In this document: positions 63,469-63,830 of the stretch, piece after piece
Position numbering within the stretch: the stretch's first letter is position 1
Layout of the letters: the number at the start of each line of letters is the position of its first letter
NCBI RefSeq assembly: GCF_003334405.1
Contig: NZ_QOWM01000006.1
Reading direction: 5' to 3' (one strand)
DNA from: Escherichia coli
Lineage (GTDB): Bacteria; Pseudomonadota; Gammaproteobacteria; Enterobacterales; Enterobacteriaceae
Length of the DNA: 64,000 nt
Made by a program: the position numbers and the translations under genes
Notes under the pieces: model-generated
Told to the model about the DNA's origin: nothing
The model's input: the letters and a program-made list of their open reading frames with translations, nothing else
The model's database searches: none

Positions 63469-63508
63469 TTAAAAGATGAGCGGTTGAAATAAAAATGCAT
63501 TTTTCCGC

Positions 63509-63536
63509 TTGTCTTCCTGAGCCGACTCCCTATAAT
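63509..63536 (+). promoter_or_regulatory. rrn P1 promoter (-35 TTGTCT 63509..63514, 16-bp spacer, -10 TATAAT 63531..63536, GCGC discriminator) with A/T-rich UP element just upstream
   Basis: Read from sequence; architecture matches rrn P1 promoters; A/T tract AAATAAAAATGCATTTTTCC at about 63488..63507. Confidence 0.8.
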
Positions 63537-63618
63537 GCGCCTCCATCGACACGGCGGATGTGAATCACTTCACACAAACAGCCGGTTCGGTTGAAGAGAA
63601 AAATCCTGAAATTCAGGG

Positions 63619-63646
63619 TTGACTCTGAAAGAGGAAAGCGTAATAT
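63619..63646 (+). promoter_or_regulatory. rrn P2 promoter (-35 TTGACT 63619..63624, 16-bp spacer, -10 TAATAT 63641..63646)
   Basis: TTGACTctgaaagaggaaagcgTAATAT read from sequence; matches rrn P2 architecture. Confidence 0.8.
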
Positions 63647-63687
63647 ACGCCACCTCGCGACAGTGAGCTGAAAGCCGCGTCGCAACT

Positions 63688-63699
63688 GCTCTTTAACAA
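63688..63699 (+). promoter_or_regulatory. boxA antitermination element of the rrn leader (TGCTCTTTAACAA)
   Basis: Exact boxA consensus read from sequence in the leader upstream of 16S. Confidence 0.75.
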
Positions 63700-63830
63700 T
63701 TTATCAGACAATCTGTGTGGGCACTCGAAGATACGGATTCTTAACGTCGCAAGACGAAAAATGAATACCAAGTCTCAAGAGTGAACACGTAATTCATTAC
63801 GAAGTTTAATTCTTTGAGCATCAAACTTTT

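Follow-up and report, generated by a model that had tools for sequence, protein, structure and literature searches.

Reading the end of the 64,000-nucleotide Escherichia coli window (by which we mean the whole stretch of DNA analysed) in the direction of transcription, we come first to gmhB, the gene for D-glycero-beta-D-manno-heptose-1,7-bisphosphate 7-phosphatase (62893..63468, + strand; taken from the list of open reading frames and RefSeq MG1655 b0200). It has a GTG start, a TGA stop at 63466-63468 and a product of 191 amino acids that matches PDB entry 2gmw over its full length. The 5' end of the 16S rRNA gene rrsH follows on the same strand (63831..64000; Rfam RF00177, 111 bits; RefSeq rrsH) and is cut by the end of the window; as the 16S sequence starts at 63831, the interval 63469..63830 is the exact gmhB–rrsH spacer. 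The sequence is that of E. coli K-12; comparison with MG1655 finds the promoter segment identical and a single difference in 2441 compared bases, at 63801, where the window has G and MG1655 has A—a position in the rrnH leader, some 30 nt 5' of the mature 16S—and the gmhB–rrnH region is present in 5426 of 5426 complete E. coli genomes. An AlphaFold model of GmhB, built on a shallow alignment of close homologues, is of low confidence (mean pLDDT 65); the last four residues of the protein are unstructured in it, and are also absent from the PDB construct 3l8e.

The hallmarks of rrn P1/P2 promoters are a near-consensus −35 hexamer, a 16-bp spacer, a TATAAT −10 hexamer and a G+C-rich discriminator (GCGC...), with P1 typically lying about 290 nt before the mature 16S and a second promoter about 110 bp downstream. 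By consensus scan and homology to other rrn P1 promoters, we see that the −35 hexamer of rrnH P1 is TTGTCT (63509..63514, + strand) and its −10 hexamer TATAAT (63531..63536, + strand), followed by the discriminator GCGCCTCC. The core alone (TTGTCT-16 nt-TATAAT, 63509..63536) agrees with the consensus at 10 of 12 positions, and together with the discriminator it spans 63509-63544, in the form expected of a tandem rrn P1/P2 promoter. Across 85 taxa the −10 hexamer does not vary, and the core as a whole matches those of P1 in the six other rrn operons exactly or almost so. Homology to rrnB P1 (TATAAT plus an 8-nt discriminator) places the start site, +1, at A 63545, which puts the last base of gmhB at −77 and the 16S at +287. 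Exactly 40 bases (63469-63508) lie between the gmhB stop codon and the P1 −35 hexamer at 63509, in keeping with the preliminary description of this DNA, which had put the rrnH promoters about 40 bp past the stop. Further downstream, the consensus scan locates P2 (TTGACT-16 nt-TAATAT; 63619..63646, + strand), and the leader carries, as read directly in the sequence, the element TGCTCTTTAACAA (63687..63699, + strand), which by the consensus of rrn leaders is the boxA antitermination element.

In rrn P1 promoters the UP element occupies positions −60 to −40. Placed by homology to rrnB P1, the corresponding region of rrnH is TTGAAATAAAAATGCATTTTT (63485..63505, + strand), which is 81% A+T and has a mean column identity of 0.87 over 85 taxa. 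It fits inside the 40-bp gap and is wholly intergenic; the earlier suggestion that the UP element overlaps the 3' end of gmhB is therefore wrong. No intrinsic-terminator-like structure was found on the + strand between the gmhB stop and P1 (63469-63544), so that gmhB transcripts would have either to continue into the promoter or to be stopped at it.

The spacer is also matched, at 63462-63709, by the Rfam family Ysr197 ('Yersinia sRNA 197'). The match scores 145 bits in the E. coli window (E 4e-37), below the gathering score, with the corresponding matches in Yersinia ruckeri (263 bits) and Serratia (203 bits) both above it. As the model sets in before the P1 start site and takes in P1, P2 and some of the leader, the 'sRNA' looks like a stretch of rrn promoter and leader, and not like an sRNA gene in its own right.

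How closely gmhB abuts the promoter can be judged against the other rrn operons of MG1655, measuring in each case from P1 +1 to the closest CDS boundary upstream. Co-directional genes end at −77 in rrnH (gmhB), −82 in rrnB (murI), −86 in rrnA (hemG) and −152 in rrnG (clpB); the remaining three operons have divergent neighbours, with starts at −189 in rrnC (yieP), −189 in rrnD (yrdA) and −331 in rrnE (purH). The tight CDS–promoter layout is thus found in three of seven operons (rrnH, rrnB and rrnA), and the implication of the preliminary description that rrnH is unusual in this respect does not survive the comparison, rrnB and rrnA being alike.

In looking for Fis sites we used a symmetric, weighted matrix derived from the published 15-bp consensus (GNtYAaWWWtTRaNC) and calibrated on the other MG1655 rrn operons; percentiles refer to all 15-mers of the window. 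Applied to rrnB as a control, the matrix recovers −71, −102 and −143, the positions reported for the three footprinted Fis sites of that operon. A match centred at exactly −71 occurs in rrnA, B, C, G and H and, more weakly, in D, that is, in six of the seven operons. In rrnH this predicted Fis site I, GATTAAAAGATGAGC (63467..63481; here and for the upstream matches no strand is assigned), scores 9.4, in the top 0.01%, and it opens with the GA of the TGA that ends gmhB (63467-63468). A second strong match, GGGTGTTAAATAGCC, is centred at −134 (63404..63418; score 7.4, top 0.05%) and lies inside gmhB, within codons 171-176 (W171-L176). Elsewhere the rrnH region yields only weak matches, at −100, −104 and −173; the last of these, GTAAACCTATTACGC in gmhB (63365..63379; score 5.2, top 0.4%), is absent from the positions conserved across taxa and is probably insignificant. 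Closer to the end of the gene, an A-rich block, AAAAAGCAGCAAAAACCGGC (63442..63461), encodes KKQQKPA and coincides with a Fis-like site centred at −91 in most genera.

A scan of 63360..63510 with the strict consensus, GNNYRNNWNNYRNNC, returns the same two strong positions, 63404 and 63467; two matches, against about 0.26 expected from the density in the window. The degenerate Fis consensus is not enriched across the window (110 matches versus 141 expected), and the weight of the prediction is carried by the weighted matrix, the local density and conservation, the degenerate consensus by itself being uninformative on a window-wide scale. Fis-like sites are therefore present in the 3' end of gmhB, where the preliminary description had expected regulatory DNA to be embedded in coding sequence. 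Its claim that the Fis sites overlap the gene holds for the predicted site at −134, inside the CDS, but applies to site I only in the two nucleotides shared with the stop codon, most of that site lying past the end of gmhB. The predicted activator sites thus fall within the co-directional upstream reading frame, one in its codons and the other on its stop.

The tandem rrnH promoters and their dependence on Fis were characterised more than 20 years ago, and Hirvonen et al. 2001 are said to have obtained Fis footprints at all seven rrn P1 regions. In the gel shifts of Maeda et al. 2015, which included an rrnH fragment, several Fis complexes formed on that fragment and the count of Fis sites agreed with that of Hirvonen et al. 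2001; in the same study deletion of fis lowered all seven rrn promoters, of which rrnH was the weakest (PMC4696680). We mapped the upstream primer of the rrnH fragment to 63314, at about −231 to −235, some 155 bp inside gmhB. A literature search on rrnH P1, and on gmhB together with rrsH and Fis, returned nothing specific. Taking these observations together, we think it highly probable that the window holds the known rrnH tandem P1/P2 promoters directly behind co-directional gmhB, equipped with Fis site I and, likely, with intragenic Fis sites.

It could be argued that only the core promoter, the UP element and Fis site I matter, and that the Fis-like matches within gmhB are by-products of the amino acids encoded and of A-rich Lys, Gln and Asn codons. 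The composition of the −134 site lends itself to this argument: its decisive bases are first and second codon positions of the conserved residues W171, V172, N174, S175 and L176. They are thus largely set by the protein, and conservation alone cannot separate a constraint on the protein from one on the DNA. An entropy scan of five-codon windows points the same way: synonymous variability over −134 is unexceptional and gives no signal, and the KKQQK window, with a weak local signal at K184/K185, stands only 7th of 165. Sites II and III of rrnB, moreover, are reported to add little activation in standard fusions. Other results fit this explanation poorly. When we generated 20,000 synonymous recodings with E. 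coli codon usage and the protein held fixed, the score of the real −134 site was reached in only 1.6%, and only 3.6% produced an equally good site anywhere between −190 and −86. The AAA-AAG choice at K184/K185 is all but fixed, with K184 being AAA in 80 of 81 taxa and K185 AAG in 75 of 75, so that none of the other eight Lys codons varies as little; and the A-run at −92 to −89 is kept even in species where the stop codon precedes it. To this may be added the multiple Fis complexes on the rrnH fragment (PMC4696680) and the clustering of conserved Fis-like scores at the 3' end of gmhB, described below. On balance we consider it unlikely that the intragenic matches are by-products. Evidence for a constraint on the DNA beyond that on the protein is nonetheless mixed as far as sequence comparison goes, and for this reason we infer, rather than observe, a role for Fis at the predicted sites within gmhB, a role we take to be likely.

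The same lysine codons form part of an in-frame A_AAA_AAG heptamer (63441-63447, gmhB codons I183-K185), which we considered as a dnaX-type −1 frameshift site; only 22 of 78 taxa use ATA for the Ile, so the heptamer as a whole is not conserved and is probably incidental.

For comparison across relatives, a genome scan with GmhB gave 80 Enterobacteriaceae species. The order metI-metN, gmhB, 16S is the same in Serratia, Yersinia ruckeri, Erwinia and Dickeya. Most of the relatives' contigs end 60-600 nt past gmhB, as is to be expected since assemblies break at rRNA operons; where the sequence continues, the 16S follows. Assemblies thus break repeatedly at the 3' end of gmhB, and drafts often lack part of the rrnH promoter.

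Using the same measure throughout—the share of 81 taxa in which a position scores at or above the 99th percentile of the window—we find that the Fis-like match at −71 is retained in 100% of taxa, that at −134 in 89% and that at −91 in 80% (median score 4.85). Only one comparable position exists elsewhere in gmhB, at −382, with 62% of taxa.

From the interior of gmhB through P1, the alignment is gapless. All 75 loci (from 85 Enterobacterales taxa) that reach the P1 −10 hexamer place P1 +1 exactly 652 nt from the gmhB start, a spacing that also holds in Serratia, Yersinia, Erwinia and Dickeya. The neighbouring intervals, which serve as controls, vary: from 179 to 190 nt for the metN–gmhB spacer and from 270 to 344 nt for the leader between P1 and the 16S. 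Within this fixed scaffold the gmhB stop codon shifts by point mutation, its last base lying anywhere from −95 to −77. Most taxa (54) have it at −86; it is found at −95 in one taxon, at −92 in nine, at −89 in eight, at −80 in ten and at −77 in three, K-12 among them. The 'drift' extends into E. coli itself, at 63463-63468 of the window, where exact 31-mers around the stop, counted in the 5426 complete genomes, identify the K-12 type GCA CAA TGA (191 aa) in 1221 genomes, GCA TAA (190 aa) in 966 and GCG TAA (190 aa) in 1515; the 190-residue form, with TAA one codon earlier, accounts for at least 2481 of the 5426. This combination, a 652-nt register that does not vary and a stop codon that drifts and is polymorphic, adds a minor new point to the comparison.

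The Fis-like site at −91 spans the ancestral stop codon (−88 to −86). In Escherichia the ancestral stop has become CCG and the site is degraded, with a score of 0.78 in K-12. One way of viewing this, to which we give somewhat less than an even chance and which we put forward tentatively, is that the C-terminal tail of GmhB is in effect translated promoter DNA: the upstream activator sites would hold the 652-nt register whilst the stop is free to drift between −95 and −77, and Escherichia, having lost the ancestral stop within the −91 site, would have gained two to three residues extending onto Fis site I at the price of a weaker −91 site.

A different role for the gmhB-internal DNA can also be envisaged, in which it acts mainly through H-NS or intrinsic curvature, repressing or silencing when the growth rate is low instead of serving activation by Fis. 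The region contains several A-tracts, and H-NS binds rrnA, rrnB and rrnH (PMC4696680)—exactly the three operons with a co-directional CDS ending less than 90 bp from P1. Binding by H-NS is nevertheless compatible with binding by Fis, the two proteins competing at rrnB, where the Fis sites have been proposed to insulate P1 from H-NS and from upstream read-through (bioRxiv 10.1101/2024.03.27.586983). That H-NS or curvature is the main agent at rrnH strikes us as very improbable, and we return to the reading in which Fis acts both at site I and, likely, within gmhB.

The coordinates, the sequence matches with their conservation and the like layouts at rrnB and rrnA are observed; such an arrangement could operate as follows. 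RNA polymerase would recognise the P1 core, with its −35 TTGTCT, 16-bp spacer, −10 TATAAT and G+C-rich discriminator, while its alpha C-terminal domains would contact the A/T-rich UP element (−60 to −40) within the 40-bp gap; at rrnB P1, the UP element is where these domains bind, and a contact between alpha and the Fis at site I brings about activation. A Fis dimer at the predicted site I of rrnH (−71), which starts within the gmhB stop codon, at its final two bases, would activate P1 in its turn. Further dimers would most likely sit inside gmhB—in K-12 at −134, and in the majority of other genera at −91 as well—where we infer that they probably add activation and shield P1 both from H-NS and from transcription of gmhB. 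The junction of gene and promoter may then be thought of as a module of fixed register, in which only the position of the gmhB stop drifts.

Regulatory DNA embedded in an upstream coding sequence is an already known layout, common to rrnB/murI, rrnA/hemG and tyrT/purU. Two Fis sites have been placed within murI at rrnB and one of the three at tyrT within purU (bioRxiv 10.1101/2024.03.27.586983); with Fis sites inside upstream genes already stated for these two promoters, the rrnH case is an ordinary one. In practical terms, genome engineers should be aware that an rRNA promoter can be altered when the 3' end of gmhB (and likewise of murI or hemG) is recoded, deleted or tagged. The 652-nt register with its drifting stop makes a tidy, small example of dual constraint, one that opens no long-standing question; if the GmhB tail were indeed translated promoter DNA, the junction would provide a natural system in which to measure how a protein tail and a promoter constrain each other.

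The nearest known counterpart of rrnH P1 is that of rrnB, the most-studied bacterial promoter. The two share a near-identical core with the same 16-bp spacer and −10 hexamer, a Fis-like site at exactly −71, and a co-directional CDS immediately upstream (murI ending at −82, gmhB at −77) that contains Fis sites, those of rrnH being predicted. They differ in the −35 hexamer (TTGTCT in rrnH, TTGTCA in rrnB), in their UP sequences, which are unlike, and in the upstream Fis positions, which are −102 and −143 in rrnB as against a predicted −134 in rrnH (with −91 in other genera); in rrnH, moreover, the gmhB stop codon overlaps the predicted site I by 2 nt. The rrnA promoter resembles rrnH in having a co-directional gene, hemG, a strong Fis-like match at −71 and further matches inside hemG, but the upstream gene is a different one and the upstream matches lie elsewhere. 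Finally tyrT, compared here from the literature, likewise serves a stable RNA and has a Fis site within the co-directional gene purU, in the manner predicted for rrnH, whilst differing in that it drives a tRNA rather than an rRNA operon.
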